NCBI RefSeq assembly: GCF_000143415.4
Contig: NW_003314318.1
Coordinates: 248,001-312,000, forward strand
Direction: 5' to 3'
DNA: 64,000 nucleotides
Origin: Selaginella moellendorffii
Taxonomy: Eukaryota > Plantae > Lycopodiophyta
Shown: positions 2,250 to 64,000 of the stretch, piece by piece
How positions within the stretch are numbered: the first letter of the stretch is position 1
Layout of the letters: each line of letters starts with the position of its first letter
The notes under the pieces: model-generated
What the model was told of the DNA's origin: nothing
The model's input: only the letters and a program-made list of their open reading frames with translations
Database searches by the model: none
Program-made: the position numbers and the translations under genes

Positions 2250-2262
2250 GGCTCCAATATCA
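2250..2262 (-). promoter_or_regulatory. Degenerate primer-binding site (tRNA-iMet)
   Basis: Minus strand reads CTTACA-ATT-TGATATTGGAGC versus canonical TGGTATCAGAGC. Confidence 0.75.
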
Positions 2263-2265
2263 AAT

Positions 2266-2699
2266 TGTAAGCCACAAATTTTTCCTTTCCAATTTGCCAG
2301 CTTACCTCATCTATCCGACCAACGCTGCCTTGGCTTGTGCTAAGTTCCCTTGCCAAGGTTCTCGCCTATTGTACCAGCTCCTACTTGGTCCTACTTGGTT
2401 TCAGCTGGACTCGATCTCGGACTCGATCTCGGACCTGATCTCAGACCCGATCTCGGACTCGACCTCGGACTCGGTCTCGGACCCGATTTCGGATCTCGGA
2501 CTCCGTCTCGAACTCGGTCTCGAACTCGGTCCCTGAGTCGGCCTCAGACTCGATTCCGGACTCTATCTTGAACTCGGTCTCCGAGTCGGTCTTGGACTCG
2601 ATCTTCGAATTTGGTCCCATCTGATGAACTCTTTGTCATTTTGGTCATTCTTTCGGGGTTCCTTTAGCCTATGACACCTCAGCGAGTTGGTTCCTTACA
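2266..2699 (-). repeat. 5' LTR of family A (434 bp) containing a 12-bp tandem array
   Basis: Termini TGTAAG...CTTACA. (CTCGGACTCGAT)-like units at ~2407-2610. Reverse complement matches the LTR starting at 63419. Confidence 0.92.
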
Positions 2700-5600
2700 C
2701 ACTCTACACCCTTGTGACATAGGCATACCAAAGAGACAGCAAATAACCATCCCAATCCAAATGCTGAAAGTTCACATACTTCGCAATCATCCCTTTGAAT
2801 GTCCGAATGAGCTGTTCCACCATACCGTCTGATTGTGGATGATAAGCACTCGTGAAAGTGTGGCATATCCCCAACCGAGACGTCAAAACATGAAATGCCT
2901 CAGCTATAAATGCAGGACCATTATCCGAAAGAATCCGCTCTGGACAAGAATGCTGGAACACCACTCGATTGAGGAGGAAGTATCCAACAGTAGTTGCAGA
3001 GGCGTTAGCAAGAGCACCAACTTCCACCCAATGAGTCAAGTAGTCAGAAGCAATAATAACATACTCATTGCCAGCAGTCAACCGTGGAAAAGGTCCCATA
3101 AGATCAAGCGCCACCAACTCAAACGGATGGGAAACTGCAATTGACTCCAACCGTCCTTCCGCAGCACAAGGGGGAGTATTACGAGCTTGGCACCAGATGC
3201 AACTACACACATACTGGATAACATCACGTTGCATCTCTGGCCAATAGAAAGACCTACGCAGCTTCTCAGTCACACGACGATGTCCCATATGCCAACCTAG
3301 AATATGAGAATCATGGTAGGCATGGAGAAATTGCGGAATAAAGACAAAAGGCACCACCAGCTGTAAATAATCATTAGGATCCGTCCCCACAAAATAAAGA
3401 AGGCCATCTTCAAGGTGATATTGAGAATGTAAATGCCGGAAAGGCAAGTCATCAGCAAGTGATGCAGGATTCTCAAACGCATCTCGAAGCCTTTGAATCC
3501 ACAGCTCAATTTTTTGAGCCTCGCGAACCTCATCAAGAGAAGGTAGATCTTGCTCTGCTCCTTGTGGACACTGAACGTCAAGTACAGCAACCGCCAACGG
3601 CATAGAATCCTCGCCTAGAAAATCCACAAATGCTGGAAAAATAGGCTCATCAGAAATATAGGAAGAGAGTGGAGAAGGAAGAGGAGCTCGAGAAAGGGCA
3701 TCAGCATTAGCCAAACAACTCCCTGGGCAATGAACAACATCAAAATCATATATCTGAAGCTTCAAAACTCACCGAGCAGTACGATTAACCAGGTTCTTCC
3801 ACTTCAATAATGAAGAAACAACAGTATGGTCACCTTCAAGTAACGTCCGAGAACCATGTAGATATGCATAAAGTTTCTCGAAACCCCAAACTATCGCTAA
3901 ACACTCCTTCTTAATTGTGGAGTAGTTCAACTCTGATAGTTGTAACGTACGGTTTATATATGCAATGGGATGACGCTAACCAGGCACACTCAGGCTTTCT
4001 TGCATTAACACACCTCCAAAACTAATATCAGAAGCATCTACACACAAAATAAAAGGTCGAGTGTAGTCAGGATATGCCAAAACCAAAGGAGTTGTTAACA
4101 GTTATTTGAGTTCCACAAACGCCCGCTCACAATCTGAAGACCAAATGAAAGATGATGTTGATGACTTCAGCAACGCTTGCAATGGTGCAAAGCGATCAAA
4201 AAGATGATCCACAGAAAGACCGAGATACTACACCTTGCTCAGGAAGCGTTGCACATCATTAACACACTTCGGAGTAGGGAACTTTAGAACGGCTACAAGT
4301 TTGTCATGATCAACTTGCAAACCCTCACGAGAAATATGGTACCCAAGATAGGTTGTGTCCTTGGACCCAAACACACACTTCGACCGCTTCAGCTTTAAAC
4401 CAACATCTTGTAGCCGATCCAACACTTTACACACATCATGAATGTGCTCCTCCCATGTCCCCTCCGAGTGAATCAAGACATTATCAATGAAGTCAGTAGT
4501 CACCTCTGGCATATCACAAAGAACCTCATCCATCATCCGCCAGAAAGTTGCTAGAGCATTGTTCAAACTAAACGGCATCACTAAGAACTCGTACAAACCA
4601 AACGGTGTACGAAAAGTAGTCTTAGGAATATCTTCTTCGGCCATCAGTACTTGCCAGTACCCAGAAGCAAGATCTAGCTTGGTGAACCAACGACTTCGCC
4701 CCAAACGATCCAAAAGATCAACAGTGTGAGGAAGAGGGTACATATCCGGGATCGTCACTTCATTTAATGGACGATAGTCAATGCAGAAATGAATACTCCC
4801 ATCAGGCTTCGTCACAAGATGAGGTTCACATGCCCAAGGACTTCGCAACTTCCGAAAAACACCCTTCTCCAACATCTCCTTGATGTTTGCACGTAAAATC
4901 TTGATTTTCTTGGGTGACCGACGACGAACAAAAACCTTGATTAAACGAGCATCCCCGGTTGGAATGGGATGACGTGTGGCAATCTTGGCCCCAGAGGATA
5001 GGTCAAATTCAAAGAGATCACAATACTCCTTCATGAGCTGGTTAACAGTTGCAACACAAAAATCGTCAAAGGGATCGAAAAAGGGAAGAGCAAAACAAGA
5101 TGGAAACACAGGAGGTAATAATAGGGGAACAAAAGTAATGGAAGCAGAGGTAGAAGTAGAGGGATGAAGAGGTACGGAAGTGAGAGGAATGGATAAAACA
5201 TAAGGAAGTATGAGACAAGGGGGAGAAGCCTCAAAGTCACACTTGGCATGATTGCACTGCAACCAATCCATACCAAGAATAAGGTCAAAAGTTTGACTCG
5301 GCACCACTTGCAACGACTGCAACTCAAGCTCGAGATTGCCCACATGCACAACCAGGTCCACCTCATCTCGTGCACATGCATGTGTACGGCCGTTGCCATA
5401 AAGAATGAAAACTAGGTCCATTGCATGACACAAGTGTAGACGACAACGTGTGGCAACAAGTCGAGAAATAGAAGATAAACTCGAACCTGTATCAACCAAC
5501 ACGAAGAGAATAATAGGAGACCTCTTGTTATAAAAACGAGCTTGGAAAGTAAACACTGGATGAACCGGTGCCGCATGAACCTCTTGATGATACTCCCGAA

Positions 5601-6578
5601 AGAAAGATGGAGGGGTCACTAACTTATTTGCACAAGGTCCCTCCATTACTCATGTGACTCCTCGTTTCCCTAATGCACTGTGGTGTCCAAACCTTCCACT
5701 GCAACAGCACCAACGGGACATTGCTGACGCCAAGGTCTTCACCCAGGAAATGGAGGTTGCCAATCCGGGAAACGCAAACAACACCGATAAGTATGACCAA
5801 CTTCATCACACGCCCAACAACGAACATCACGGCCTCGACCACATCTTTACCCTTGTCTTTGGACTCGAGTAGCAGCAGCATCAACCTCCATTGGAACAGG
5901 ACCATCACTCATAGGAAGTGGAGTTGAAGGACGTGCAACGAAAAGTGGAAAAGGTGACGTCTCATAATGTTGTGCCAAGCAAAGAGCATCGTCAAGGGTG
6001 GCAGGAGCAAGTGCATGCACAAGTCCGACAAGATCTTGACGAAGTGTTGGCCACAACATTCCTAGCTTGATCCGCTCTGACATATTAGACTCTGCACAAA
6101 GCAAAAGACTTCGGAAACGAACGCCAAATTGCATCACCGACTCAAATGGCCCTTGGCGAAGACGATGCAATTGTTCGAAGGCATCATCACAATCGTCGGC
6201 ATGTCCGAAGGCGCATTTGAAGACGTCCGGAAGAACACTCCAATCCTCACGAGTGGCCGCGCTCAATCCATTATACCACTGCAATGCCGTCCCTTGGAGA
6301 CACGTGGGAAACTCATGCAAACATCGAACATCATCCCAAAAATGATATGTGGCAATCACTATGAAGTAATCAAACTAATAGTACACATCATCCCCAAGAT
6401 TCCCACGAAAGAACTCCGACCAAACGCAAGGATTGGCACCAAGAGCTAAATCTAAACCAAAATCCTAAAAAGGAAGAACAAAAGAAAGGAAATGGAAAAA
6501 ACTAAATCTAGATGATGCAAAAGCTAGATATAAACCAAAATCTCAAATCTAAACACCCTTTAGGGACAATCAAAGGTG

Positions 6579-6594
6579 CCCCTCATCTCCACCA
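6579..6594 (-). promoter_or_regulatory. PBS complementary to tRNA-Ala
   Basis: Minus strand TGGTGGAGATGAGGGG versus the complement of the tRNA-Ala 3' end (TGGTGGAGATGCGGGG, recalled). A degenerate copy lies at ~11412-11427. Confidence 0.75.
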
Positions 6595-6595
6595 A

Positions 6596-6770
6596 TGTGA
6601 GTGCATGAAATATGGAAAGGGAATATAAAAATGTGCATATTAATTAGCCCAAAAACCCTAGCTTATATATAGGAGCGAGTGGTCCGGATTGAAACCAATT
6701 CGACGGCTACCAAAATCCCACTACGCTAATATTAGTATATGGCATCGTAGCCGTACACTTAGCCCTCACA
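6596..6770 (-). repeat. Family B LTR shared by both copies
   Basis: TGTGAG...CTCACA; PBS of copy 1 on the left and PPT of copy 2 on the right. Confidence 0.92.
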
Positions 6771-9700
6771 TCATCCCCTCCTCTCGGAATAATGGAAGGC
6801 CGTTAGGGTTCTCTGGTAGACGGGCTGGGATCTGGAGGAACATTAGGAGGAGGCATCGGCGGATCTATAGATGGTATTAACTGCTCCTGATCCCTTTGTA
6901 TGAAGCGTTTCAACTGCTGCACATGCACAACCTCCGGAGGATTGGCCTACTAGACGTCATGCCAAACCTCATAAACTTGCAGTCCAAATTGCCGCAACAC
7001 CCGATATGATCCTTTCCACTGCGCAAGGAGCCCCTTAGATAAACCACATACCGTAAAATGGGGAAAACAGACTAACACCAAATCATCCACTTTGTACTTT
7101 GTAGGTGGACGATGATGGGAGTTGTAACGCCGTTGTTGTCCCACTTGTATGCAGCCTAAGTGTTCGGCAGATTTTGCTCGGACAAGTGGAAGAATGCTTG
7201 TCAAATATTGATCCCACGACCTAGCAACGGGAGCTCGTGGCAATCGTGAAGGTAAACCCAGCTCCGTTGGTAATATTGGATCATGACCATATAGAAGTTT
7301 ATATGGTGAAGCACCAACAACACTCTACACCCCTGTGACATAGGCATACCAAAGAGACAGCAAATAACCATCCCAATCCAAATGCTGAAAGTTCACATAC
7401 TTCGCAATCATCCCTTTGAATGTCCGAATGAGCCGTTCCACCATACCGTCTGATTGTGGATGATAAGCACTCGTGAAAGTGTGGCATATCCCCAACCGAG
7501 ACGTCAAAACATGAAATGCCTCAGCTATAAATGCAGGACCATTATTCGAAAGAATCCGCTCTAGACAAGAATGCTGGAACACCACTCGATTGAGGAGGAA
7601 GTATCCAACAGCAGTTGCAGAGGCGTTAGCAAGAGCACCAACTTCCACCCAATGAGTCAAGTAGTCAGAAGCAATAATAACATACTCACTGCCAGCAGTC
7701 GACCGTGGAAAAGGTCCCATAAGATCAAACGCCACCAACTCAAACAGACGGGAAACTGCAATTGACTCCAACCGTCCTTCCACAATACAAGGGGGAGTAT
7801 TACGAGCTTGGCACCAAACATAGCTACGCACATACTAGATAATATCACGTTGCATCTCCGGCTAATAGAAAGACCTGCACAGCTTCTCGGTCACACGATG
7901 ATGTCCCATATGCCCACCTAGAACATGAGAATCATGGTAGGCATGGAAAAACCGCGGAATAAAGACAAAAGGCACCACCAGCCGTAAATGATCATCAGGA
8001 TCCGTCCCCACAAAATAAAGAAGGCCATTTTCAAGGTGATATTGAGAATGTAAATGCCGGAAAGGCAAGTCATCAGCAAGTGATGCAGGATTTTCAAACG
8101 CATCTCGAAGCCTTCGAATCCACGGCTCAATCTTTTGAGCCTCGCGAACCTCATCAAGAGAAGGTAGATCTTGCTCTGCGCCTTGTGGACACTGAACGTC
8201 AAGTATAGCAACCGCCAACGGCACAGAATCCTTGTTTTGAAAATCCACAGATGCTAGAATAACAAGCTCATCAGAAATATGAGAAGAGAGTGGAGAAGGA
8301 AGAGGAGCTCGAGAAAGAGCATCAGCATCAGCCATAGAACTCCCTGGGCGATGAATAACATCAAAATCATATATCTGAAGTTTCAAAGCCCACCAAGCAA
8401 TACGACTAACCAAGTTTTTCCGTTTCTATAATGAAGTAACGGCAGCATGGTCACCTTCAAGTAATGTCCGAGAACCATGTAGATATGCATGAAGTTTCTC
8501 AAAACCCTAAACTGCCGCTAAACACTCATTCTCTGTCGTGGAGTAGTTCACCTCTGCTAGTTGTAACATATGGCTTATATATGCAATGGGATGACATTGA
8601 CTAGGCACACTCGGGTTTTCTTGCATTAACACACCTCCAAGACCAATATCAGAAGCATCTACGCACAAAATAAAAGGTCGAGTGTAGTCAGGATATGCCA
8701 AAACTGGAGGAGTCGTCAACAGCTCTTTGAGATCCACAAATGCCCACTCACAATCTAAAGACCAGATGAAAGATGACGTTGATGACTTAAACAATGCTCG
8801 CAACGGTGCAGTGCGATCAGAAAGATGATCCACAAAACGACCGAGATACTGCATCTTGCCTAGGAAGCGCTGCACATCATTCACACACTTCGGAGTAGGG
8901 AACTTTAGAATGGCTACAAGTTTGTCAGGATCAACTTGCAAACCCTCACGAAAAATATGGTACCCAAGATAAGTTCTGTCCTTGGACCCAAATATGCACT
9001 TCGACCGCTTCAACTTTAAACCAACGTCCCATAGCCAATCCAACACTTTGCACACATCACGAATGTGCTCCTCCCATGTCCCCTCTGAATGAATCAAGAC
9101 ATCATCAATGAAGTCAGTAGTCACTTTTGGCATATCATAAAGAACCTCGTCCATCATCTGCTGGAAAGTTGCTAGAGCATTGTTCAAACCAAATGGCATC
9201 ACCAAAAACTCGTACAAACCAAACGGTGTACGAAAAACAGTCTTAGGAACATCTTTTTCAGCCATTGGTACTTGCCAGTACCAAACAAGATCTAGCTTGG
9301 TGAACCAACGACTTCACCCCAAACGATCCAAAAGATCAACAGTGTGAGGAAGAGGGTACACATCCGGGATCGTCACTTCATTTAACGGACGATAGTCGAT
9401 GCAGAAACAAATGCTCCCATCAGGCTTCGTCACAAGATGAGGTTCACATGCCCAAGGACTTCGCAACTTCCGAATAACACCCTTCTCCAACATCTCCTTG
9501 ACGTTTGCACGTAAAATCCTGATCTCCTTGGGTGACCGACAATGAACAGAAACCTTGATTGGACGAGCATCCCCGGTTGGAATGGGATGACGTGTGGCAA
9601 TCTTGGCCCCAGAGGATAGGTCAAATTCAAAGAGATCACAATACTCCTTCATGAGCCGGTTAACAACTGCAACACAAAGATCGTTGGAGGGATCGAAAAA

Positions 9701-11428
9701 GGGAAGAGCAAAACAAGATGGAAACACAGGAGGAAATAGTAGGGGAACAAAAGTAATAGAAGCAGAGGTAAAAGTAAAGGGACGAAGAAGTATGGAAGTG
9801 AGAGGAATGGATAAAACATAAAGAAGTATGAGACAAGGGGGAGAAGCCTCAAAGTCACACTTGGCATGATTGTGCTGCAACCAATCCATACCAAGAATAA
9901 AGTCAAAAGTTTGACTCGGCACCACCCGCAACGACTGCAACTCAAGCTCAAGATCGCCCACACGCACAACCAAGTCCACCTCATCTCGTGCACATGCATG
10001 TGTACGGCCGTTGCCATAAAGAATGAAAACTAGGTCTACCGCATGACGCAAGTGTAGATGAAAATGTGTGGCAACAGGTCGAGCAATAGAAGATAAACTC
10101 GAACCTGTATCAACCACCACAGCGAGAATAATAAGAGACCTCTTGTTATAAAAACAAGTTTGGAAAGTAAACACTAGATGAACTGGTGCCGAGTGAACCC
10201 TTTGATGATACTCCCGAAAGAAAGATGGGGGGGTCACTAACTTATTCGCGCAAGGTCGCTCTGTTACTCGTGCGACTCCTCATTTTCCAGATACACCGTA
10301 GTGTCCAAACCTTCCACTGCAACAGCACCAACGGGACGTTGTTGATGCCAAGGTCTCCACCCAGGAAATGGAGGTTGCCAATCCGGAAAACGCCAACAAC
10401 ACTGATAAGTATGACCAACTTCATCACACGCCCAGCAACGAACATCACGGCCTCGACCACATCTTTACCCTTGTCTTTGGACTTGAGTAGCAGCAGCATC
10501 AACCTCCATTGGAACAGGACCATCACTCATAGGAAGTGGAGTTGAAGGACGTGCAACGAAAAGTGGAAAAGGTGACGTCTCATAATGTTGTGCCAAGCAA
10601 AGAGCATCGTCAAGGGTGGCAGGAGCAAGTGCATGCACAAGTCCGACAAGATCTTGACGAAGTGTTGGCCACAACATTCCTAGCTTGATCCGCTCCGACA
10701 TATTAGACTCCGCATGATGCAAAAGACTTCGGAAACAAACGCCAAATTGCATTACTGACTCAGATGGCCCTTGGCGAAGACGATGCAATTGTTGGAAGGC
10801 ATCATCACAATTGTTGGCATGTCCGAAGGCGCATTTGAAAACGTCCGGAAGAACACTCCAATCCCCACGAGTGGCCGCGCTCAATCCATTATACCACTGC
10901 AATGCCATCCCTTGGAGACACGTAGGAAACTCATGCAAACATTGAGCATCATCCCAAGAATGATATGTGGCAATCACTATGGAGTAATCAAACCAATGGT
11001 ACATATCATCCCTAGGATTCCCACAAAAGAACTCCGGCCAAATACAAAGATTGGCACAAAGAGTAGGAAGAGTTGGACCACGTGCCGTAAATGCCGCCAT
11101 CAATTGAGTTTGATTGTTCAATTGCAAGTATATAGCATTAAGCAATTGGACCAACTACTACTCTAGAGTCAAAGGAGGAGATTGCTAATTTGCCATGAAG
11201 ATGAATGAAAAAGAAAAAGCAAAAGAAAAAAAATGACAAAAAGCCAGAAGGAAATGATAAATCTAGACAATGCAAAAAGCTAGATCTGAACCAAAATCCT
11301 AAAAAGGAAGAACAAAAGAAAGGAAATGGAAAAAATTAGATCTAGACAATGCAAAAGCTAGATCTAACCAAAATCCCAAATCTAAACACTCTTCAGGGAC
11401 AATCAAAAGTGCCCTTTATCTCCACTAA

Positions 11429-11603
11429 TGTGAGTGCATGGAATATAAAAAGGCAATATAGAAATGTGCATATCAATTAGCCCAAAAACTCTAGCTTATA
11501 TACAAGAGCGAGTGGTCCAGATTGAAACAAATCCGACAGCTACCAAAATCCCACTATGCTAATATTAGTATACGGCATCGTAGCTGTATACTTGGCCCTT
11601 ACA
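11429..11603 (-). repeat. 5' LTR of family B copy 2
   Basis: TGTGAG...CTTACA, 175 bp, colinear with 6596-6770. Confidence 0.92.
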
Positions 11604-31647: not shown

Positions 31648-34600
31648 TAGGGTTCTTTGGTCAATAAGAGGAATATTAAGACAAGGCACTAATGGATCCA
31701 TATGTGGTGCAGTGTTTTGGATCCTATGAAATGTTTCAATCACTACATAATTAAAATATAGACAATTTCTAAAAGATTAGCATGTTGAATGTTATGTTGA
31801 ACTTGTGGCACAATTTACCACAATATGTAAGATAATCCCTTCTTTTGAGCAATGAGCCCTGTGAACAAACTGTATAGGAAAGATAAATTAACACTAGGTA
31901 ATCTACTTTGTATTTTATGTGTGGATGATGATAAAAGCTATAATGCTATTGTTGTCCTATTTGTATGCAACCCAAGTGTTTTGCTAATTTTACCTAGATC
32001 AAATATTAATCTCAAACTCATGGCAATTGTGAAGGCAAACTCAATTATATTGACAATGTAGGATCATAATTATATTGATCTCAAGACATAATATTTACAA
32101 ATCATGGCAATTGAATATAGGATCATGGTGAAGCATTAATATAACTCTATATCTCCATCATGACCATTCTACTAAACAATCCATTTACAAATGATAATCT
32201 CTTGAATTTAGACTTTTTAGAAGGTCACCCAATCTAATACTACTCTAAATATCTTAAAACCCTTAATCAATTAAAAAGAGAGTGCACTTTTCTTCATTGG
32301 ACCTAAATTAATCATCTCTCAAGTTTTTTTCTTTAGTTGTTTATATGCTTGTGAAATTATGGTGTATCCCTAACCAAGCTGTCAAAATATAAAATGATTG
32401 TCCAAGAGAATCTACTTTAGATAAGAATGTTGCAACACTATCGATTGAAAAAGAAGTATCCAATAGTAGTCTCAAGCACACTAGCAAGAGAATTGACTTC
32501 CATTTAACAAGTTAAATAGTTGGACATAATAATGATATACTCATTGTCGATTGTGGAAAATGGTCTATCAAATTAAATCTTACTAACTCAAATGGATGGG
32601 AAATTATAATAAAATTCAACTGTCCTTCTGTAGCATATGGGGGAGTATTACAAATATGAGACCAAATGCAGTTATACACATACTAGATAATATCATATTT
32701 CATTTCTAACTTAATGCACTATGATTAGAAAGATGATAAATAAAACAATTAATATATTGCACCTTGTTGAAGAGACCAAACACACACTTAGATTAATTTA
32801 CCTTTAAACTAATGTCCTATAACCAATTTTGAACCTTGTGTATATCATAAATATGGTCCTCCCTCTAAGTGGATCAAAGTATCATTAATGAAATTGCTAG
32901 TTACCTTAAACATATCATAAAAAACATTGTCCATTATATATTGAAAAGTTTCTAGGCTATTATTCAAACTAAGTGGCATCACAAAGCACTTTTACAAACC
33001 AAATGGTATATAAAAAGTAGTATTAGAAATTTAATATCCTTCTCAATCATCAATATTTGCTAGTATGTAGAGGCAATATCCAACTTCATGAACAAATGGC
33101 TTTGCCCTAGATGAAGATTTATAGTATAAAGAATTGAGTATATATCCATAATTGTCACATCATTCAATGGATGATAATTGATATAAAATTGAATGCTCCT
33201 ATGAGGTTTTATCATAAAATGAGGTTCAAAAGCTTAAGGATATTAAAATTTCTAGATAACACTCTTCTCTAATATCTCTTTGACATTGGCCTATAAAATT
33301 TTTATTTTCTTCAATGACTAATACCAAACAGAAATGTTGATTGAACAATCATCCTCAATAGGAATAGAATGATTTATTGCAATCTTAACCCCAAAAAATA
33401 AGTTAAAGGTGAAGAAATTAGTATATTTCTTGAGTTGATCAAGTATATCTTATAAAGATCATTTGAAGGAACTATAGAAGAGCATAAAGGAAAAACAATT
33501 ATAACATAAAAGTGTTTGAAGTAGAGGTAAAAGTAAAAGGATGGAGTGAAATAAAAGAGAGAGAAGAATGGAAGATTTATAAGGAATTATAAGACAATGA
33601 GGGGAAATCTCAAAATCATATTTGATATGATTATCCTTTAATCAATTTTTATTAATAATAAGGTGATTTGATATTACTTATAAAGACTAAAGCTCAAGCT
33701 CGTGATCACTAATACACATAGTCAAGTTCATTTCATCCCATACATATTCATATGACTAGCTATTGTTATAAAAAATGAAGACTAGCACTACCATACAACT
33801 CAAACATAAATGACAATATATGGCATTAAAATTGAACAATTGAAGACAAACTCAAACTCATATTTGCCAAGACCTTCTATTATAAAAATAAGATTGGAAA
33901 GTAAACACAAAGTGAATTAGTGTTAAGTGAACCTTGATAATACTCAAAAGAAGGATGAAGGAGTCACTAATTTATTCAAGTAAAGATCCTTCACTATTTG
34001 CATAATTCCTTGTTTCCTGAAAAAAACATTTATGTTAAGTCCTTCCACCATAGCAACAATAGAATGTTGCTGATACCAAGATCTCCACGTAAAAAATAGA
34101 AGATGTTAATTTGAGAAACATTAACAATACTGATACAAAACTCCATTAGAACAAGCCTGTCCACCATAGGAAATGGAGCTCAAGTATATGTAACTATAAA
34201 TAAGAAAGGTGATGCCTTATAATGTTATGCCAATTAAAGAGTATTGTCTAGGGTTGTTAGAACAAATTCAAGCAAAAGCCCTAGATAAGATTTTGACAAA
34301 GCCCTAGCCACAACATGCCTAAATTCATTCACTCTAATATATTTAGCTTAAGGTTTCAAAAGCAAATGTCAAATTGTATAACTAACAAAAAAAATGATAT
34401 ATTTTACTAAAAGGTATTGTTATAGTCACTAGCATGTCTAAATGCATGGACAAAGACATTCAAAAAAAGGCTCTAATCCACACAAGTGGTTGCACTTAAA
34501 ATATTGTATATCATCCTTTGAAGATAATTGGGAAACTCATGCAAACAAAGCATCACCTTATGAATGATAAGTGACAATCACTATAAAGTAATTGAACAAA

Positions 34601-35528: not shown

Positions 35529-38500
35529 TGTAGCGCACGTGGTTTTGACCCTTTATCCTATGGTGATTTACCATAGGATAACACCACGAAGCGGAACCTA
35601 AACCCTCTTTGTGCCACGTGACAGATGCCACGTGTCCATGCCACGTGTCCATAGGAACCCGAGGTTCAGGGCCTTGGGCCACTGAACGAAAGAACGGTGC
35701 CAAACTCCCAAGCATGGAGCTAAGGAGTGACGGAACCATACCACGGAGCAACTCCCGAGCATAAAGCCCCAAGGAGCGAAGGGACAGGGGCCCGGAGCGA
35801 CTTGGAACAGTCCTGGAGCAACCAGCATCCCAATGCCAGGACTAGCACGCAAAACGGAGCCAAACGGAGTTTGGCGCTATTTCGGCATACCGGTGGCCTA
35901 ACGTGAGGATATGGGTACTCCACCAACTAGCATGGAATGGAACTTGGGCTTAGACCCAAGCCGGACGCAGAACAAGGACAGGCACGCAAGCGGGAGCTAG
36001 ACTATGCCTCAGGTTGGTCGGCCATGCCCGACCTACCCACTATCCCTACTATACATTTGGAACCCCCCACAGCCCCCCCCCCTTGAGGAACACACGCTTT
36101 GGGCTTTCACCCCAAGCCTCCCTTAGTATCAGGAGTTAGTCTCTGGGACAAGCTTGAAACTTACTAAATATGGAATGTCCTTAGATTGCGAATTTGGACA
36201 CGGGACGAACACCATTGTGTTCAGGACGATCTCTACATTCCGTAGATATGCCAAATGAGCAAATTTGGACACTTTCCATAAATAGCATTTGGGACCAAAA
36301 TGAGACTAACACAAAGGGTATGATAGTGAGGGTGTTTGGCAGACACGGTAAGCTATCATCTAGCAATATTGAGGGACCAATCTCAATATTGCGGGGGTTC
36401 TTGATACTAGCAAGTGCAAGCCAATGACAGGAGTTTCTCAAACCAGGCCGAGTATGCTCAGCAAGAAACACATAGGGTTCCTACCTTATGTTTATCCGAT
36501 CTAAGTACACGGTCATTGACCAGTTTCTCAACTAGCTCAAGTGGGAAACTGATAACGGGTCCAGCAATACCGACCTCCTGCCATCGTGGCAGTAAGGTAA
36601 GAGTGTCCGTAAGGACTAGCCGACAGGTAACTTTCGATACCCGAAGTCACATTCGCGACACTCTCCCCCCCTTGGGAAGATCGACGTCCTCGTCGATGCA
36701 TACTCGAGTCTAGAATACCGCCAAGGAAACAACTCCAGAAAAAGTTCACGGTACTCACACTATGTGAGAAATGCACCAACTTAAATGAGTTAGGGGTAAC
36801 CTCTTTGTCTAACGCGGATGCGCTACCAGCTCAGACACCTTCCGGCCGTCGCTGACAAGGAAATGACCAACAGAATTAGCCACCCTTGCTGCTCTAGTTG
36901 TCACCCAGCTTACAAAAGTGTGATATGCCCTGCCCGCAGAGACATAGAGAGAGGAGCCAGGGGCCCCAACCCTCCTGAGCAAAGAAACCAAACCCGTCGG
37001 TAAGGTTTAGATAGACTACTGTAAACAGGCAGTTAGAGTTGTTTACACGGTCACGCCCTTTTAACGGAACAAGGAACATCGACAAAGAGGCGGGTTATGT
37101 GACCAGTCGACAGTAGCTACCCCATGACTAGAGATTTCACCATGCACACGAAGTGCCGAAGCCAGTCTGCCTATTACTGGCCCAAACTCAAAGATCAATA
37201 GATGGACAATATCAAAGTCAGGGACAATGATATCTTAGAAGCTTAATTATCAGTGAATAAATCTTAGATTAGAACACAAAAGTATTCCAAGTAAGTTATC
37301 ATCCGATAAACCAGTATTATAGTAGATAGGAACCACCAAGATCATCATAATTTGGCAAACACAGGAATGACCATCCAACAAAATTCAAAAGCAAGGGTAT
37401 CATCAAGAAAACTTAATGACCAAACTTAACTATCAAAGATTGCAGATAGAATGCCAAACAACTTACCAAAGAAAACTCAAAGAACACAAAGCATCATCCA
37501 CTGGCAAGCAAAATGCTCGCGAATGTATCACCTAAAGGAAATAACATCCCAATCTATCAGAACTAACTCGAGTAACAACCAACAAAACAGAATGAATGTG
37601 GCAAGACCAACAAACACTCGTTTATGCCAACTATCACGCTAGCTAATCCGAATAGATCCCAGCCAACAACACCAAAGAACTCAAGTTGCCTAAGTAAGTG
37701 TCAGCAACATCCTATCAATGTCTCAAACCCAAGAGACCAATCCAGAGCAAACCACAAAGAACATGTGGTATTGCAAAAAGCCAAAAGCTATCAAAGAGAA
37801 CAACCAACTATCATGAAAGATTGTCAATCATCCCATCAATAAAGAGATGCATAATCATTGTCAAAGAAAGAATCCACCATCCCGCAGAATGGCAAATCAT
37901 TCTATATCAACAATAATCAAGCAAAACCCTTGACAAAGATAATCAACTATCTTATATAATAATCAATCATCACCAATGATTGCTAGATGCAAATACTGAC
38001 TTCAACATCGAAGCTAATGAGCCAAAATGCATTCTCCAATAACTTCTAACAAATGGAACAATGAGCATAAAACTCAAAGAACCAAAAGTTCGAAGAAGTC
38101 TATAGCCAAGTCTTGCCTAATAATGATCACGAGTCTTGCATGGACTAACGTCAATGCTAAAGAAGAAATCATGGTACAACACACAATATCCTCCTCAACA
38201 CATCTATAAATTAAACTTCATAATGTAAAGCTAATGAAGAGCATGTCTGCATCAATCCAAAAGCTAAGCATAATAAAGCTATGCTCAACAAGTGATCATC
38301 AAACGATCCTCCATGAATCCATCTATAGCAAGACGTAACTCACATCATAACAAGCACAAGAAGAATCATCAATGATCGATATATTCCAACTCAAATCCAA
38401 TAAGGATTCAAATATTCCAATATCAATCACTAACTCTTCATCTCGTAAAGTTAGTGTTATCCACAACTAAATCACTTTTCAAGGAAAAGCCAAAGCTCAA

Positions 38501-41500
38501 CCCCTACTAAATAATCTCGTCTAGAACACAACTAACTCAAACTTGCCACTCAGCTCATTTGAATGCTAACATAGTTGCTAACTAGCAAATGTACGAATGC
38601 CAATAACACAAAGCCATAGCCAAATCATCAACACTATTTTCATTGAGACTAATGACACTCAATATCAATCCTATGGAGAGATATTTCATTTCACTTGAAT
38701 ATCAACTTCAACAATGTCAATGAAAAGGCATCGCTTCAATGCCATTAACACTAGAACAAAGCTAAAAGAAAGCACAAGTGTATCACCACTCAAAGCTCTC
38801 TAACAACCAAGCTAACCAAGGTCGAAGATACTTTAGTTAGTATCCGAGACCAATCCTTTAGCAAAACTCAGTTATAGATAACACTTCTTCAAGGAGTGAA
38901 TCACCACGTCCAAGACTCAATGAAATCCAACACTATGAACTAAACGCAACCAAATGATATCAACAGAGGTAGAGTCGATATGCCAACATGGAAAACCCAT
39001 GTAAGTCTAACGACACGATCCTCCGCAACCCCATTCGGTAAAGCAAGCCCATCACTGCTAAATCTTTATCGAGTGAAGCAAGTATCAATAGTCTTTTGAC
39101 AAAGTCTACAAGTAATCACTAGTCGCCAAGCAACTAACAATCACCCTTCAACTTGCCTTCACAAGACCCGAACACCAACTCATGTCATCGAGTCACATAC
39201 TTGTCCAACACGAACATAATACCCCAAGTATGAGATAAAAGTTCATAGACAAGCACAAACTAAATGACCACTCGAATCCAACTCAACCATGATAAACTCA
39301 CCAATGCGTTTAGCCAATAGCTCTGAGCATGCCTTTTTGAAGAGGCTAGCTATGCATAATCAACACTCAGTCGAAACTAAAGTGAAGACCATGAGATGAA
39401 CTCATATCGGTACACAACCTCCTTATAGACAAAGCCATAATATGGGTACTAACACCTCAACTTCAAACAACTAAGTTGGACATCACCATCCTCAGCCAAG
39501 GCGTAGGGACACCAAGACCAAGTCAAGATCAGTGAGAGCTCACTACTCTCATAGAGTCTAACGAAATGCAAAGTGCAACCTGCCACCAAGCATAACGCTG
39601 CAAAAGAAAGGCACAAGGGTCACCTTTCTAGAAAAGTGCAACCGCCACTTTTCTACACTAACTCCAGACTCTATCCAACTCAATTGCCTTAGCCCCAAAA
39701 GTCAATATCCCTTTCGGGCTGCTTCATACAAACTACTTGCCAAGGTCTAAGTTAACCGAGGTCAACTCCAACCCTTTCACTAGTTTGTACTGGCTTACGA
39801 AAACGGAAAGGTTTTTGGACAAAGTGATAACAGATCAGCCATTGGAAAAGTCTAAGAAAATTTGTGGAAAATCTTCCAATCCTAGAGAAAGAATGACTCT
39901 AAATCTAAGAATGCAAATTTTTAAAACTCAACCAACTTCCTCCTACTTACAACTTCACATAGGTTCACCTCAACACAAATTCTCATGACCTATAGTATGC
40001 TTAAGCCTCGAACATCTTTCTGCCCATTCTTTCGACATCCAACACCGACATCCGTAAAGTGCAAAGTGAACATCCAAGGCTTGATCACGAAGACCACATC
40101 TTCGGATATCTATATTGCACTAACACTCTTCTTCAACCACTTTCAAGATCCAATGTGAAGCTAAAACACTAACAAGAAAAATGACATGGAAAATCAAGCT
40201 CTAAGGAAAATTCCTTATCACTCGAAGTAACAATGCCACTTCCACTAACACAAGTGCTAGTGATGTCAATGCCCCAACTACACATCTTCTCCATCCAACA
40301 ATCTACTCCAAGTGTTAACGAATCAACTAATGAGCTATAGCAACTAAATGCTACAACCCTTTTCCAACACCTTAGTGGGCAAACTCAAGGAAACAAGGAA
40401 CAACATACCAACTTAAGCTTAGCATAATGGACCACTATCGAGAATTCAGTCAAAGCTACTACAATGCTACTTCGTGCAAGTAGACTGGCATCACTATCAA
40501 CCACTTTGGGGTTGATCATCATTTAACCAAGCAACTTCGTAAACACATTGCTCATTAACACATGGATATGATACAAAATCACAATGATTTGATCATCAAT
40601 TGAGCAACACCACGAGCAACACCCATGTCATTACTTCAAAGGTTTATGTGAGTATCAAGTGCCAACTCGATTTGATAAAATGCAACATAAATGTCACACT
40701 CCACCGATAGAGATTTACAACACTCAGCACCACTAACTTTTGTTCACAACATGGACAAACTCATGCCACTCTCTTTTCGACCAAACTCAACACTAATCCA
40801 ACACCAAGCTACTCAAGGAGCAATAGCAAGATTCCCCGGAAAAGAATTGAGCATTGCAATCCAAGTCTTTCAACAGCAAGCCTAGACAAAATGGTATAAC
40901 GTTTCACTGCTATCCATCCCACAACTCACCATTTGTAAGACCATCATCTCCAAGATGCATCAAGGTAGGGACTCTTGATTGCATGATGTGAACACGAGCA
41001 ATGAGTTAACACATCGTTGCAAATCATCTCTCCAAGAAGAGAAGATGATTTACGTGTTTGATCCTTCGTCCCTGATGACTCTCTTTTCAGTCTCATCTTT
41101 GACTAAACCTCAAGCTTGCTTTCGCACTGCCTTCAATCCAATCCAAGAAAAGTTTATGAGAGAGCACAGCAATGATTACTTGAGCCAATAGACTAATCCC
41201 TATAGTCTTGATTAATCCACTTGTAATCATGTCTAGGAAGGATCCACTAGTGCCGTGCTAAACAGCTACGGACCAGCCTATTTGCCACTCATAGCAAACT
41301 CAAGGAGGTTTGCTTTTACCCACGGTACATGGAACAACTCATGGAACCACAGATAGGCTAACATTAATCCTGCCAACTCAAAGTTTAATCTCGAGTTGCT
41401 AATGTGCCTCACTCACGAGCCCAAGCGTAAACTCGTGTTAATGGAGCATCTCAAATCCATCCTATGAGCCCAAGAGCAAGCTCACCCTATTAGGTACAAA

Positions 41501-42786
41501 AGGTAACCAAAACCATACCCAAGGAACGAATGCGAACCCATTGCACCAAACGTGTACCCACTCGGATCATCGTTTTCATCTCTGCGTATGCAACGAAACT
41601 AGTTGCCCAATCTCATTGAATAGTACTCGCTGAGACTCATCCTCTGATACCAAATGTAGCGCACGTGGTTTTGACCCTTTATCCTATGGTGATTTACCAT
41701 AGGATAACACCACGAAGCGGAACCTAAACCCTCTTTGTGCCACGTGACAGATGCCACGTGTCCATGCCACGTGTCCATAGGAACCCGAGGTTCAGGGCCT
41801 TGGGCCACTGAACGAAAGAACGGTGCCAAACTCCCAAGCATGGAGCTAAGGAGTGACGGAACCATACCACGGAGCAACTCCCGAGCATAAAGCCCCAAGG
41901 AGCGAAGGGACAGGGGCCCGGAGCGACTTGGAACAGTCCTGGAGCAACCAGCATCCCAATGCCAGGACTAGCACGTAAAACGGAGCCAAACGGAGTTTGG
42001 CGCTATTTCGGCATACCGGTGGCCTAACGTGAGGATATGGGTACTCCACCAACTAGCATGGAATGGAACTTGGGCTTAGACCCAAGCCGGACGCAGAACA
42101 AGGACAGGCACGCAAGCGGGAGCTAGACTATGCCTCAGGTTGGTCGGCCATGCCCGACCTACCCACTATCCCTACTATACATTTGGAACCCCCCACAGCC
42201 CCCCCCCCTTGAGGAACACACGCTTTGGGCTTTCACCCCAAGCCTCCCTTAGTATCAGGAGTTAGTCTCTGGGACAAGCTTGAAACTTACTAAATATGGA
42301 ATGTCCTTAGATTGCGAATTTGGACACGGGACGAACACCATTGTGTTCAGGACGATCCCTACATTCCGTAGATATGCCAAATGAGCAAATTTGGACACTT
42401 TCCATAAATAGCATTTGGGACCAAAATGAGACTAACACAAAGGGTATGATAGCGAGGGTGTTTGGCAGACACGGTAAGCTATCATCTAGCAATATTGAGG
42501 GACCAATCTCAATATTGCGGGGGTTCTTGATACTAGCAAGTGCAAGCCAATGACAGGAGTTTCTCAAACCAGGCCGAGTATGCTCAGCAAGAAACACATA
42601 GGGTTCCTACCTTATGTTTATCCGATCTAAGTACACGGTCATTGACCAGTTTCTCAACTAGCTCAAGTGGGAAACTGATAACGGGTCCAGCAATACCGAC
42701 CTCCTGCCATCGTGGCAGTAAGGTAAGAGTGTCCGTAAGGACTAGCCGACAGGTAACTTTCGATACCCGAAGTCACATTCGCGACA
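35529..42786 (-). mobile_element. Very young non-autonomous LTR retrotransposon (LARD-like, family E)
   Basis: LTRs 35529-36660 and 41655-42786 (1132 bp each; three substitutions seen), TSD ATTGT on both sides, PBS TGGTATCAGAG, PPT at 36661-36677, ~5 kb interior without long ORFs. Confidence 0.95.
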
Positions 42787-58899: not shown

Positions 58900-60577
58900 G
58901 CAGCAATTTTTATTGAAGGGATTTGAAGCTTGATATTCTCAACTATTGTAAGTTATACAAACTTTATTAGCAGGTAAATAGGAAAAGTTAGGGGCTTTTG
59001 TAACATTTATCTATTCCTCAAAGCCATTAATGTAGTATTTTTATGAACTTCATCACTTATTTGCCACAAATACATGGGTTATAGTGGATCAATTAATAAA
59101 GTATATGCAGTCATTGGTTCTTCAAAAAACTTTCACTACCTAAAACTTGGCTATAGTTTATTTGGAGGTTTTTTCTAATTTTAATTTGTTAAAGGATATT
59201 GTCAGCGATTGAAACTCAAAGTTCACTAGTGGATTTTGGAAGAGCTTTGTGAAGGCTTGGTAGAGGATATACTATACTATAGCATTAACTAAAGACAAGG
59301 ATAATGGAATTTATATATTTCATTAGTGCACTTATAATAATAGTCAGCATAATGGAACCAAGCTAAGGCTTTACTTTACCATTTTTAAAAGGCATTCTCA
59401 AATAGCATTGCATTTAAGCAAGGATGTTTAGGATAAATTTGATTTAGAGGCAATTAATCAAGCCATAAAACTTGATAAGATTTTGGTGGTATTTAAGTAT
59501 AGGGTAAAGAAGTTTGGTGCCACTTCTAGGAATATAAATGTAAGAAACCAAAGGGAATGACTTGAGAGACAATCCGTTGGGGTTCAAATATAGAGGGAAA
59601 GGGCCCATGAATAAGAGTGCACCCCCTTTTTCAATCAATTAAGGGTCTTGAGATATTTAGGGTTAAATGTCCTTGAGTGTGAATAGTACTGGGTTGGGTG
59701 ACCTCCCGAAAAGTCTAAACTCACAAGCTTACATTTGGTATATTAGAGGGTCCAACTTGGGTCCAACTCTATTAGTTGGCTAAGGGAATCACACCACATA
59801 TTGATTGACATTTGGCTGGTCTAGTTTACTCTTGTTCTAGTTTACTCTTGTTGGGCTCGACCGAGGGGTAGGGTGTCAAGAACCACATATTGATTGACAT
59901 TTGGCTGGTCTAGTTTACTCCCGCTGGGCTCGACTTGAGGGGAAGGGTGTCAAGAAAGCGGGGCTCTCGGGAAAGTTGCGGCTCTCAACTTCTGTTCACG
60001 AGGGCGTGAACTTGTAGGAAAGTATGATGGATTGTAAGCAACCAAAGGGAATGATTTGAGAGACAATCTGTTGGGATTCAAATATAAAGGGAAAGGGCTC
60101 ATGAATAAAAATGCACCCCTTTTTCCAATCGGTTAAGGGTCTTGGGATATTTGGGGTTAAACATCTTTAGGTGTGAATAGTACTGGGTTGGATGACCTCC
60201 CGGGAAGTCCAAACTCAAGAGTTTATAATAAAGTGGAAGATTTTATTTTTATGCAAGTGATTTTTTTGTCAAGTCACCAATAGAACATTTTAGTGCTTTT
60301 GTGGAGTGATAAACTTTCTCATAGATATACTAGTTTATATGAAATGTCAAGGTATATAGGTAAGATGGCTTATCAATTGCAATTGCCAGCTAAGGTGAAA
60401 ATTCATTTGGCATTTTATGTCAACCAATTGAAAGGTGAATTGTTTTAAAGTGAAGAGTTTGATATATACAATTGTGGATGCTAGACCAGGAGCTTCTATA
60501 GTGTTCTTCAAAAAAAGTGATTACCTATAGAACTCATTATTGGGATAAAGACTTTATTTGGTGGGAGGAAGAATTGG
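58900..60577 (+). pseudogene. Eroded Ty3/gypsy integrase 3' end, host of the first Cassandra-like TRIM
   Basis: DIVSD*NSKFTSGFWKSF at ~59195; KLSHRY..IGKMAYQLQLPAKVKIH at ~60310-60410; PPT-like GGGAGGAAGAA near 60565. Confidence 0.7.
59539..60227 (+). mobile_element. Complete Cassandra-like TRIM (689 bp) with 5S rRNA-derived LTR segments
   Basis: LTRs 59539-59733 and 60033-60227 (195 bp each), TSD ATAAA, PBS-like TGGTATATTAGAG, purine-rich tract before the 3' LTR, 5S-like core AATAGTACTGGGTTGG(G/A)TGACCTCCCGGGAAGTCC. Confidence 0.92.
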
Positions 60578-60992
60578 TAGGCACAAACTTTAACCATATT
60601 TAAGTTGATCTTAATAAATTTATGGCTGTTTCAAAGTTTTTTACTTTGAAGTGTGTGAACAATATACATTACTGCAAATATTATTGAAGTTGTCAACATC
60701 ATCTTTCATCTTCTCTGAAGACTATGAAAGAGCATTTATGAATCTCAAATAATTATTAACATATGCATGGATGCTTTTAATATTATGTTGATGCAAGAGC
60801 ATAAGTGTATTTAGTTAGTGTTATCCTATGTCATATGTACATTGCAATTAGTAGAGGTGAACTATTCCATGACAAAAGAATATTTAGCAGTAATTTAGAG
60901 TTTCAAGAAGTTTGATTCATACTTGCATGGTTTTTGAACATTGCTAGAAGGTGATCATTATTGAAGCAGAAGAATTTAGTTGGTCGTATTGT

Positions 60993-62537
60993 TTAGCAAG
61001 CTTTAAAGTTCTCCCATGCTTTGAACTCGGCATTGATGTTTGTCTCACCAACATCAATCAAGAAGTTGTGCAAGATGCAACAACTTTTGATGATGTTCGG
61101 CAAGTACTTTGGCTTGATCCTTTGTTTTTGATCCAAACATTTGAATTTTATTTTCAAGAGTCCAAATGCTTGTTCAATAACAATCCGGGCTAGATGGTGT
61201 TGCTGGTTGTACTCCGCCTCAATCATCGTCAATTGGGAACCTGTTTCAAATGAATAATTGAAAAAAAAAAACAATCAGCTTACCTAAGTGAGGGACCATC
61301 AAGTGCTACTACAGCTGGTAGCCCTTGTCTCTCACCAGATATGGCTCAATCCACTCGTCAAAAGCAAACCCTTGAGGAACTATAAATAATTCCCTTGCTT
61401 GGATCTTGTGGCATAGCCTGGAGTTCCAAAAAACCCTCATGTCATGAACACTCCCTAGGAAAAAAAAAACCAATTAGATGATAGAAGAAAAAAATTAAAA
61501 GTAATTACCTGGCCAGCCTACATAGATACTCAAGAATCTTTTCTAAGCATCGCAAACCCCCTGCAAGATCACCGAGTACCACTGCTTTCAATCAAGGAAG
61601 CCCTCACCATCTGGGCCAACTGGTTGGATAATCTCGAAATGTGTACAGTCGATTGCCCCAGCCACATTAGGGAGATGGGTATAACCTCCACTACTGTCTC
61701 CGGGAATCAAATCTTGTACTCGAGGCATTTGACAATTGCAGCAGTTGTCTACACCACAATATCATGTGTAGTGGCTCCCCCGATCCCAAACTTGTCAGAT
61801 AGGTCAGAGTAGTTGGTATTCTTGAACAACTTGTACAAGGTGACCCCCAAACGAACATCCACTGGCACCGCTCTCCTAAAATTTGTATCTTGCTTGCAGA
61901 TTTCAGCCTCCAAAATGCCACAAAGCCCGAAGAATGTCGTCTTCTCCATCCTCAACTTCTGCTTCCATTGACCAGGGTCATACAACTCCATGAAGAACTT
62001 TCTCCATGTTGTTATACACTGTGGCTTCACCCACCAGATACCGGTGTCAAGTCACTTGGACAAGACTACTCGACAAAGCTTGTCTTCGTCCTCCTCCTCA
62101 TCTGAAAGAATTTGTGCCACCAGGGTCTTATCATTGATAATGGATCGAAAAGCCTCCACGATGAGAAACAAAACTTGTAGAATAAACAAGATTACCTCAT
62201 TCCTCAATAAGGTATCGATGACTACTGCCTGATTGTTGAAAGAATCATGTTCCTCCCAATCTCTTTGGTTTTCCCCGGAAGCATCTTCTATTTCCTCGGG
62301 TTGAACTGTTATAAGATCCTGAAAAAAAAATGGTTAAAAAAAATCTAGAATATCAAGGGCTGGGTCACGTACTGTGTGACATACCGCGTTACATACTGCG
62401 GTACATTGAACTCGCACCATCTCCTCATCAAACCCTATAGCTCCTCCTTCCCCAAAATCGGCTGCTCCTCCTTCCTCCACCGAATCCCCAACATGATCTA
62501 ACCCTAGGGTGATGATTGCTATCGGCTCCCCCGCCAT
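60993..62537 (-). pseudogene. PIF/Harbinger DDE nuclease (HARBI1-like), intron-containing, with stops
   Basis: LRMEKTTFFGLC..RLGVTLYKL..DKFGIG, YSVILQGVCDA, GWP|GSVHD.RVF.NS, DKGY, YNQQH..ARIVIEQAFGLLKIKFKCL, SCCILHNF. Confidence 0.9.
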
Positions 62538-62941
62538 CAATGCTTGAGCTTGTGGCAATCCCAGCTCATGGCAAAAAACTGAAACACCCTAATTAGGGTG
62601 CTGGAATCTTTGGGGAATCTTGGAGATTCCTTTTAAAAATATTTTAAGTTTAAAAGAAACCCCCCCCATCTTTTAAAATCAATTTTTTTTTGGTCTAAAT
62701 GTTTTAAAAAGTGAAAACATTGTGTTAAAGTTAGCATTATGTGTGAATGAAAATGTTTTAAAAAAATATCCTAAATTTTAATGTAAAGTAATTTCCTTTA
62801 TTTTAAAACATAGTGCGAGTGTATTTTTCACTTAAATTTAACACATTTCAAGAATAAAGAGCAAATGCAAATGGCTCCAATGGATTATTCTTTAATTGAT
62901 AATAGCATGGCATAACAAAAGAAGGGAATAATGGATGGTTC

Positions 62942-63418
62942 TATAAACAACCAAAGAAAATGACTTGAGAGGCAATTTATAAGGGTTTTAAAATAAAAGT
63001 ATGGGCCCATGAATAAGAGTGCACCCTTTTTTCCAATCGGTTAAAGGTTTTGAGATATTTGGGTTTAAACGTCCTTGGGTTTGAATAGTACTAAGTTGGG
63101 TGACTTCTTGGGAAATCCAAACTTATGAATTTACATTTGGTATTAGAAGGGTCTCGAGTCTAACTTTATTGGGGAATCACACCACATGTTGATTAACATT
63201 TGGCAAGGGTTCAGTATGCTCTAGCTGAGCTTGATCCGAGGAGTAAGTGTAAGCAACCAAAGGGAACGACTCGAGAGACAATCCATGAGATTCAAATATA
63301 AAGGGAAAGGGCCCATGAATAAAAGTGCACCCCTTTTCCCAATCAGTTAAGGGTCTTGGGATATTTAGGGTTAAGTGTTCTTGGGTTTGAATAGTACTGG
63401 GCTGGGTGACCTCCCGAG
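62942..63418 (+). mobile_element. Second Cassandra-like TRIM; 3' LTR interrupted by a family A element
   Basis: 5' LTR 62942-63135, PBS-like TGGTATTAGA, 112-bp interior, 3' LTR from 63248 broken at 63418 just after GGGTGACCTCCCGAG. Confidence 0.9.
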
Positions 63419-64000
63419 TGTAAGGAACCAACTCGCCGAGGTGTCGTAGGCTAAAGGAACCCCGAAAGCATGACCAAAATGACAAAGAGTTCATCGGATG
63501 GGACCAAGTCGAAGATCGAGTCCAAGACCGACTCTAGGACCGAGTTCGAGATAGAGTCCGGAATCGAGTCCGAGACCGACTCGGGGACCGAGTTCGAGTC
63601 CGAAGTTCGAGACCGAGTTCGAGACGGAGTCCGAGATCCGAAATCGGGTTCGAGACCGAGTCCGAGGTGGAGTCCGAGGTCGGGTCCGAGATCGAGTCCG
63701 AGATCAAGTCCGAACCTGAATCCGAAGTCGGATCCAAAATCGGGTCCGAGATCGAGCTAGAGACTAAGTCCAAATACTAATACGGGTCAAGGGGTGAAAG
63801 CCCAAAGCGTGCGTCTCCTAGGGGGGGGAGGCTGCAGGGGGTTCCAAAAGTATAGTAGGGATAGTGAGGTCCAGGAACCAGTTTAGAAGGGACTCTCCAG
63901 TGGGGCTCCCAAACTGACTTGAGGTTGGGACTGGGACCGAGGGGCCTTGGGTGGGAGTGAGCATGGACTTGGTTGGTGCCGGAGGGGCCATCCAAGGAAG
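63419..64000 (+). mobile_element. Start of a family A Ty3/gypsy LTR (runs off the window)
   Basis: TGTAAGGAACCAACTCGC.GAGGTGTC.TAGGCTAAAGGAACCCCGAAAG matches the reverse complement of 2699 leftwards; 12-bp GAGTCCGAGATC-like array at ~63510-63760. Confidence 0.92.

Follow-up and report, generated by a model that had tools for sequence, protein, structure and literature searches.

The element that mobilises the widespread Cassandra group is called unknown in two accounts (Kojima 2024, PMC10886601; Kalendar 2020, PMC7215508), in keeping with an initial annotation of the DNA described here (the first-pass annotation), according to which no partner had been firmly assigned. The nearest described systems are each informative in a different respect. 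For retrozymes and Ty3/gypsy elements the helper was likewise inferred from just two boxes, the PPT with the LTR 5' end and the LTR 3' end with the PBS (PMC4918200); both boxes match in that case, whereas in the pair considered here, a Cassandra-like TRIM and a Ty3/gypsy family that we call family A, the 3' box is weak and the TRIM has a 5S-type promoter and no ribozyme. SmoRetroS4 and its putative Ty3-gypsy partner SmoLTRA4 come from the same species as our pair (PMC4717578), but they share whole LTRs of 104 bp, as a deletion derivative would, while the TRIM (689 bp, with 195-bp LTRs) and family A share their ends only. In BARE1/BARE2 the RNA pools for translation and packaging are separate, the packaged RNA is uncapped and the parasite is packaged in trans (PMC3735527), which resembles what we propose below, although that system is Ty1/copia and its parasite is a close coding relative, unlike a TRIM transcribed by Pol III.

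A Cassandra-like TRIM in a lycophyte

The window analysed is a stretch of 64,000 nucleotides from Selaginella moellendorffii, in which the TRIM, a high-copy, non-coding element, is represented by the following features.

59539..60227, plus strand: TRIM1, a whole Cassandra-like element of 689 bp, with the 5-bp target duplication ATAAA on both sides
59539..59733, plus strand: 5' LTR of TRIM1, 195 bp; near its 3' end it carries 5S-like motifs (box A, IE, box C)
59736..59748, plus strand: PBS of TRIM1, tRNA-iMet-type, degraded, 2 nt past the LTR
60017..60032, plus strand: PPT of TRIM1
60033..60227, plus strand: 3' LTR of TRIM1, 195 bp
62942..63247, plus strand: older TRIM copy, with a 5' LTR (62942-63135), a PBS and a truncated interior without a PPT
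63248..63418, plus strand: TRIM LTR interrupted by a family A insertion, the break lying 7 bp past box C
32195..32304, minus strand: fifth TRIM LTR fragment, heavily decayed

TRIM1 is a real TRIM, as its size, its paired LTRs, its target duplication and the 18-bp interval between boxes A and C demonstrate, and it has the layout of a Cassandra element: under 1 kb, with no ORF reaching 150 aa. The box spacing is 18 nt in all four TRIM LTRs of the 59.5-63.4 kb region, with 1-3 mismatches per box, and a degraded iMet PBS is present in both of the TRIM copies that reach it. Rfam 5S matches fall on three of the four LTRs at E values of 0.0055-0.2, every one under the gathering score, and the z-scores for a 5S-like RNA fold (-0.52, -1.34 and +0.39) were computed on decayed copies. 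The LTR at 63248 probably inserted separately or marks a deletion junction, since no PPT stands ahead of it and its distance from the LTRs of TRIM1 (K 0.12-0.14) is smaller than its distance from the one at 62942 (K 0.29); the 62942/63248 pair was rejected as an age estimate.

Set against published descriptions rather than by alignment, the TRIM agrees with fern and angiosperm Cassandras in size, layout and PPT type and differs in its tips. It is Cassandra-like in being non-coding and shorter than 1 kb, with a 5-bp duplication, an iMet PBS and an 18-bp box A-C interval (PMC7215508; PMC10853983 and its supplement table 2); its 195-bp LTR, with the 5S domain near the PBS, resembles those of ferns (LTRs of 187-208 bp), and the PPT ending is that of Rosaceae-type Cassandras. 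The differences from the elements covered by these descriptions are that the host is a lycophyte, that the tip is TGTAAGCAACCAA and not TGTAACATCCC, and that every TRIM copy departs from the published box patterns, at 1-3 positions in box A and at 1-2 in box C. We found no paper on Cassandra in a lycophyte; Repbase may already contain the TRIM, and two Selaginella TRIM subfamilies have been described as common to other plant families (Gao 2016). A lycophyte Cassandra would make the lineage older than the common ancestor of ferns and angiosperms, or would show that a 5S promoter was captured independently. A search with a fern-type Cassandra pattern gave two metagenome matches, which we rejected as chance; they lie in apparently bacterial coding DNA and show no repeat and no 5S match.

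Family A and the comparator families

The helper comparison covers few families, namely family A and the three comparators in the window, of which B and C are detailed here; it is a comparison of LTR ends local to the window.

63419..64000, plus strand: family A LTR, its first base exactly at the insertion point inside the TRIM LTR, with tandem repeats and a G tract; runs off the window end
2266..2699, minus strand: family A 5' LTR, 434 bp, with an internal deletion near 2406/2407; inserted within a family C integrase gene
2234..2305, minus strand: candidate GT-AG intron, called from motif alone; the donor, AG|GTAAG, is at 2305 and the acceptors end at 2240 or 2234
1..2233, minus strand: coding part of family A, comprising gag with its CCHC knuckle, the protease and the first part of RT, broken by stop codons; runs off the window start
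35529..42786, minus strand: family B, a 7.26-kb non-coding LARD-like element with 1132-bp LTRs, another U3 tip, another PPT and a 2-nt PBS spacer
2700..11603, minus strand: family C, a tandem pair of Ty3/gypsy units with distant RT, whose LTRs start TGTAAGGGCCAAG (11603) and TGTGAGGGCTAAG (6770)

Family A is a Ty3/gypsy element, with domains in the order Retrotrans_gag, zf-CCHC, aspartyl protease and RVT_1. It is probably Galadriel-like: in a tree built without REXdb references its RT fragment (136 aa) is sister to a clade of six proteins, which includes polyproteins bearing a chromodomain, at a node with support 91/77 that is not starred, and this clade is presumably Galadriel, judging by a motif. 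As a proxy for family A itself, whose own chromodomain region lies outside the window, a Chromo domain was found in 5 of 12 scanned relatives, the remaining seven having no match to the integrase core. A search with a Galadriel-like polyprotein confirmed none of 93 stretches as related loci, and the REXdb supplementary text has no Selaginella rows. By description rather than sequence comparison, family A resembles SM1-Galahad and SM2-Galahad, Galadriel-clade chromoviruses of S. moellendorffii (PMC3350952, Table 1), in its CCHC Gag, iMet PBS, long LTR with a G tract, high copy number, deleted copies and an RT near the Galadriel-type clade; the LTR length, integrase and chromodomain of family A lie beyond the window. 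Its autonomy is putative: the window copy is interrupted by stop codons, and the search yielded neither an intact family A protein nor a close one.

An alternative reading of the LTR at 2699, that it closes family C at the 3' side, was rejected, the second C unit running on through that site. The opposite LTR end, at 2266, is real, for 25-51 contigs per run exit there into unrelated flanks. Read contigs were recruited in thousands by the TRIM and by family A alike, the start of the family A gag being covered as well as its LTR, though summed contig depth was not taken as copy number.

Termini of the TRIM and of family A

The first-pass annotation had reported that the LTR tips of the TRIM (TGTAAGCAACCAA at 60033 and 63248) and of family A (TGTAAGGAACCAA at 63419, and at 2699 on the minus strand) are identical at 12 of 13 positions, and that family B lacks this tip. 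Both statements hold, and a third TRIM LTR (59539, tip TGTAAGAAACCAA) likewise matches family A at 12/13. The string TGTAAGNAACCAA has five exact matches in the window, each an LTR start of the TRIM or of family A. The likeness ends sharply at base 13, identity at positions 14-60 being 10/47, and this is about the length of terminus that an integrase reads. Beyond the tip, local alignment of the TRIM with families A, B and C stayed at shuffle level (top score 25, against a maximum of 24 in 60 shuffles). Read inward, the two ends of family A agree with each other at 10/13, and the TRIM U3 tip matches A-U3 at 12/13 and A-U5 at 11/13, compared with 5-6/13 for family B (5/13 at its U3 tip) and 6-8/13 for family C, in which one LTR copy of two starts TGTAAGG and that copy accounts for the 8/13. 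Estimated post hoc and from base composition only, the chance per family is about 5e-5 for at least 9 of the next 10 bases given TGT, or about 2e-3 for at least 6 of 7 given TGTAAG; on this basis the U3-tip match exceeds chance.

The other junctions agree less well. It had been claimed that LTRs of both elements end GCTTACA, which is true of family A (2266) but of only one of the three TRIM U5 ends (GCTTACA, GTTTATA and ATTTACA), and TRIM U5 ends match family A at only 5-8/13. The PBS does begin 2-3 nt past the LTR, as also claimed, but this range conceals a difference, the spacer being 2 nt in the TRIM, 3 nt in family A and 2 nt in family B; relative to the TRIM, family A carries an extra base at each of two junctions, PPT/U3 and U5/PBS.

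The PPT, read from loose-end letters ahead of the LTRs, ends GGGTGGTGGAGT in family A (3/4 runs) and GTGGTGGAT in the TRIM (2/3 among the runs listed), with letter agreement of 0.4-0.64 and three of the runs representing one sample. These read contigs give a PPT core common to the TRIM and family A, unlike the PPTs of families B and C, which are of a purine-only type. The GTGGAT ending of the TRIM PPT is found, by eye count, in eight published angiosperm Cassandras as well (supplement table 2A, PMC10853983) and is therefore not specific to family A. The shared PPT-tip motif had no match in the metagenome and viral contigs scanned.

A candidate helper and its alternatives

We put at roughly one in two the probability that proteins encoded by family A, or by a sister family that has these same ends, carry out the copying and insertion of the TRIM. 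The tip match, its sharp end and the PPT core speak for the helper relationship suggested by the first-pass annotation; the poor U5 match and the spacers that are off by one base speak against it. Under this reading RNA polymerase III would transcribe the TRIM from its 5S boxes, the RNA would enter helper particles and be primed by tRNA-iMet at the PBS, the helper RNase H would leave a matching PPT primer, and the integrase would read an end motif of about 13 bp that is present at both ends of family A. That only cis signals stay alike, the rest having no homology, would be expected under selection for enzyme recognition. A weaker suggestion comes from the candidate intron, whose motifs place the family A U5 tip and PBS inside it: if it is spliced, the protein-coding RNA could not be copied, and packaging by family A would have to draw on other RNA molecules, to the advantage of parasites. 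Among the matches listed (15/558 and 15/23), in contigs from runs not recorded as RNA, there was neither a joint between the TRIM and family A nor one skipping the candidate intron.

If family A only resembles the real helper, and that helper is another unsampled family, be it a chromovirus or Ty1/copia, whose spacers are 2 nt and whose U5 agrees better, this would also account for the weak U5 agreement and for the one-base offset at each junction. This genome has at least six chromovirus families, among them SM-Cranky with a 2-nt PBS spacer (PMC3350952), and family C too starts TGTAAGG in one copy; we nevertheless think such a helper unlikely, given that a 12/13 tip and a PPT core would need to arise twice, at a chance of 5e-5 to 2e-3 per family. 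The asymmetry, in which U3 matches and U5 does not, could instead mark the tip as a relic of descent from, or past recombination with, an LTR of the A lineage, the TRIM having since been moved by any active machinery. The age of the TRIM copies in the window fits this, and so does an account of sugar beet TRIMs, in which terminal motifs track superfamily unclearly and generalist mobilisation is favoured, a view that counts against family A as helper; but the preservation of exactly 13 bases next to sequence at background identity is not what a relic would predict, and we hold this explanation, too, to be rather improbable. Mere chance likeness of generic TGTAA-type tips is very improbable: terminal TGTA is common, angiosperm Cassandras start TGTAAC in the published descriptions and the comparison was post hoc, but the chance estimates are low, the PPT core is additional and the TRIM tip matches both ends of family A.

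If mobilisation by family A is correct, it would be the first named helper for Cassandra, and having a named candidate, in a genome that is small and sequenced, opens Cassandra mobilisation to testing. Because angiosperm Cassandra tips differ (TGTAACATCCC), any helper assignment would be local to Selaginella and the result is not directly transferable to the Cassandras of crops. A broader and doubtful reading is that Cassandra arose before lycophytes and euphyllophytes separated and adjusts its LTR tips to the chromovirus that happens to move it. The carrier in Selaginella would then be family A, an SM1-Galahad-like element, from whose protein-coding RNA splicing would remove the U5 tip and primer site; family A would therefore have to package RNA in trans, leaving it exposed to an uncapped parasite transcribed by Pol III.

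A further point concerns age. The LTR pair of TRIM1, the one datable TRIM (n=1), differs by K 0.16 (25 transitions and 2 transversions) and is old beside the two family A copies, which are 0.076 apart, an order of ages that tells against family A as its helper.

Copies of the TRIM and of family A

The comparisons made here draw on the window, on contigs of four public runs, three of which are one sample, and on published papers. The short, non-coding Cassandra-like LTR element (TRIM), the Ty3/gypsy family proposed as its helper (family A) and two comparator families (B and C) are represented as follows.

2234-2305 (-): candidate GT-AG intron in family A, spanning its U5 tip and PBS; donor AG/GTAAG at 2305, acceptor at 2240 or 2234; motif evidence only
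2699 to 2266 (-): family A LTR; downstream lie the PBS, a gag bearing a CCHC knuckle, protease and the first part of RT; coding interrupted by stops, integrase and chromodomain beyond the window
2700-11603 (-): family C, two tandem gypsy units with a common internal LTR; distant RT
32195-32304: fifth TRIM LTR, decayed
35529-42786 (-): family B, a non-coding LARD-like element of 7.26 kb, very young, its LTRs being 99.7% identical, and flanked by the target duplication ACAAT
57444-58560: family B solo LTR
59539-60227 (+): TRIM1, a complete element with 195-bp LTRs, ATAAA target duplication, PBS and PPT
62942: start of an older TRIM copy
63419: exact first base of a second family A LTR, placed 7 bp downstream of box C in a TRIM LTR

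The TRIM is likely a lycophyte Cassandra, which is the second point of note in this analysis. In each of the four LTR copies at 59.5-63.4 kb, boxes A and C lie 18 nt apart and depart from the published patterns at 1-3 and 1-2 positions, respectively; three of these LTRs match Rfam 5S rRNA, albeit below the gathering score (E 0.0055-0.2). The LTR length falls within the 187-208 bp given for fern Cassandras in the excerpted supplement table 2A of PMC10853983, and the excerpts consulted from papers on Cassandra with Selaginella or lycophytes place none in a lycophyte. With no PPT, and nearer in sequence to TRIM1 than to the copy at 62942, the TRIM LTR at 63248 probably represents a separate insertion or a deletion junction. 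A family A LTR begins at 63419 inside a TRIM LTR, so its integration postdates that TRIM; this insertion close to a 5S-type promoter is a single event.

The other family A copy interrupts a family C element within its integrase gene. The contigs bear out 2266 as a genuine LTR end and reveal an internal deletion in this LTR; no common variant is listed among them for positions 2261-2308. No intact family A protein was found in protein searches. In a 34-row tree (28 single-stretch matches out of 150, four of five from a second search, and families A and C), the 136 aa family A RT fragment forms the sister branch of a clade that includes polyproteins with a chromodomain (support 91/77); a motif suggests that this clade may be Galadriel. 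The G tract and copy behaviour of family A also fit SM1-Galahad as described in part of PMC3350952, a comparison by description rather than sequence. Family C has no chromodomain match at its integrase end and no clear tRNA PBS.

Family A as a candidate helper

The first-pass annotation proposed that family A, or a close relative, mobilises the TRIM in a two-component system; the observation behind this proposal is confirmed in part, and the interpretation is upheld in part. The reported 12/13 identity of the LTR starts was recovered on recomputation; the TRIM U3 tip matches the family A U5 end at 11/13, and family A's own ends, read inward, agree at 10/13. Family B, as had been claimed, does not share this tip (5-6/13), and family C scores 6-8/13. 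Estimated from base composition, such a match would arise by chance with a probability of 5e-5 per family if TGT is taken as given, or 2e-3 if TGTAAG is. Contig loose ends ahead of the LTRs read ...GGGTGGTGGAGT for family A in 3/4 runs and ...GTGGTGGAT for the TRIM in two of the three runs listed, both with low agreement values, and the PPTs of families B and C differ from that of the TRIM and A. Beyond the tip, identity at positions 14-60 is at background (10/47), and alignment found no further TRIM-A homology.

Against a helper role, TRIM U5 ends match family A at only 5-8/13, and GCTTACA, said to end the LTRs of both, occurs in one of three TRIM ends. The iMet-type PBS is present as described, degraded in TRIM1 and 2 nt after its 5' LTR, but family A has one more base than the TRIM at both the PPT/U3 and U5/PBS junctions, and the 2-nt spacer is common to the TRIM and family B. 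A PPT ending GTGGAT is known from eight angiosperm Cassandras in the excerpted PMC10853983, and thus is as good an argument for kinship with Cassandra as for a partnership with A. Data from sugar beet argue that superfamily is not clearly reflected in the terminal motifs. Pear and sugarcane Cassandra LTRs, unlike those of the Selaginella TRIM, begin TGTAACATCCC, and the helper question may therefore have different answers by lineage. The divergences available (K 0.16, mostly transitions, for the TRIM1 LTR pair; 0.076 between the two family A copies; 0.003 for the family B LTR pair) are too few to show age overlap.

We put at about one in two the probability that the TRIM is mobilised by family A or a sister family. 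Pol III would transcribe it, as the boxes suggest; the helper would package the RNA, tRNA-iMet would prime reverse transcription, and an integrase recognising the 13-bp end motif would insert the product. The 5S-like stem in the Rfam alignment ends 2-3 nt short of the LTR terminus, a position that may restrict how closely U5 can mimic the helper. The pair is of a known type, a TRIM with a putative Ty3/gypsy helper, and provides a testable candidate for the Cassandra partner that sections of PMC10886601 and PMC7215508 call unknown.

A candidate intron in family A

A donor of the AG/GTAAG type is expected about 0.007 times per 60 nt, and none occurs in the two TRIM copies or in the family B PBS region. 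If the candidate intron is spliced, family A would translate from RNA that it could not itself copy and would have to package in trans, a parallel to the separate RNA pools described for BARE in part of PMC3735527.

Surrounding sequences

An old, decayed gypsy integrase remnant surrounds TRIM1 (58990-60450 (+)), whose interior contains a tandem duplication of about 75-90 bp (59782-59956). Between the TRIM copies lies a PIF/Harbinger-type DDE transposase-like gene (60996-62460 (-); DDE_Tnp_4, E 6e-14 for one piece). Two contigs of run X14, filed under another organism code, match at 63291-63416 and run on from the 5S-like portion of the TRIM LTR into a brief segment that finishes with a series of Ts, resembling a Pol III terminator; they could represent a 5S gene or a SINE-like form. 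The family B LTR and the family A LTR (at 63759-63866) have in common a 109-bp segment with the G tract (83%). One protein of the window groups with a thaumatin-like protein named from Selaginella moellendorffii, which identifies this lycophyte as the host. Host genes between 12549 and 56000 include thaumatin-like, IDD/BIRD zinc finger, mitochondrial carrier, Aquarius helicase and GMC oxidoreductase genes.
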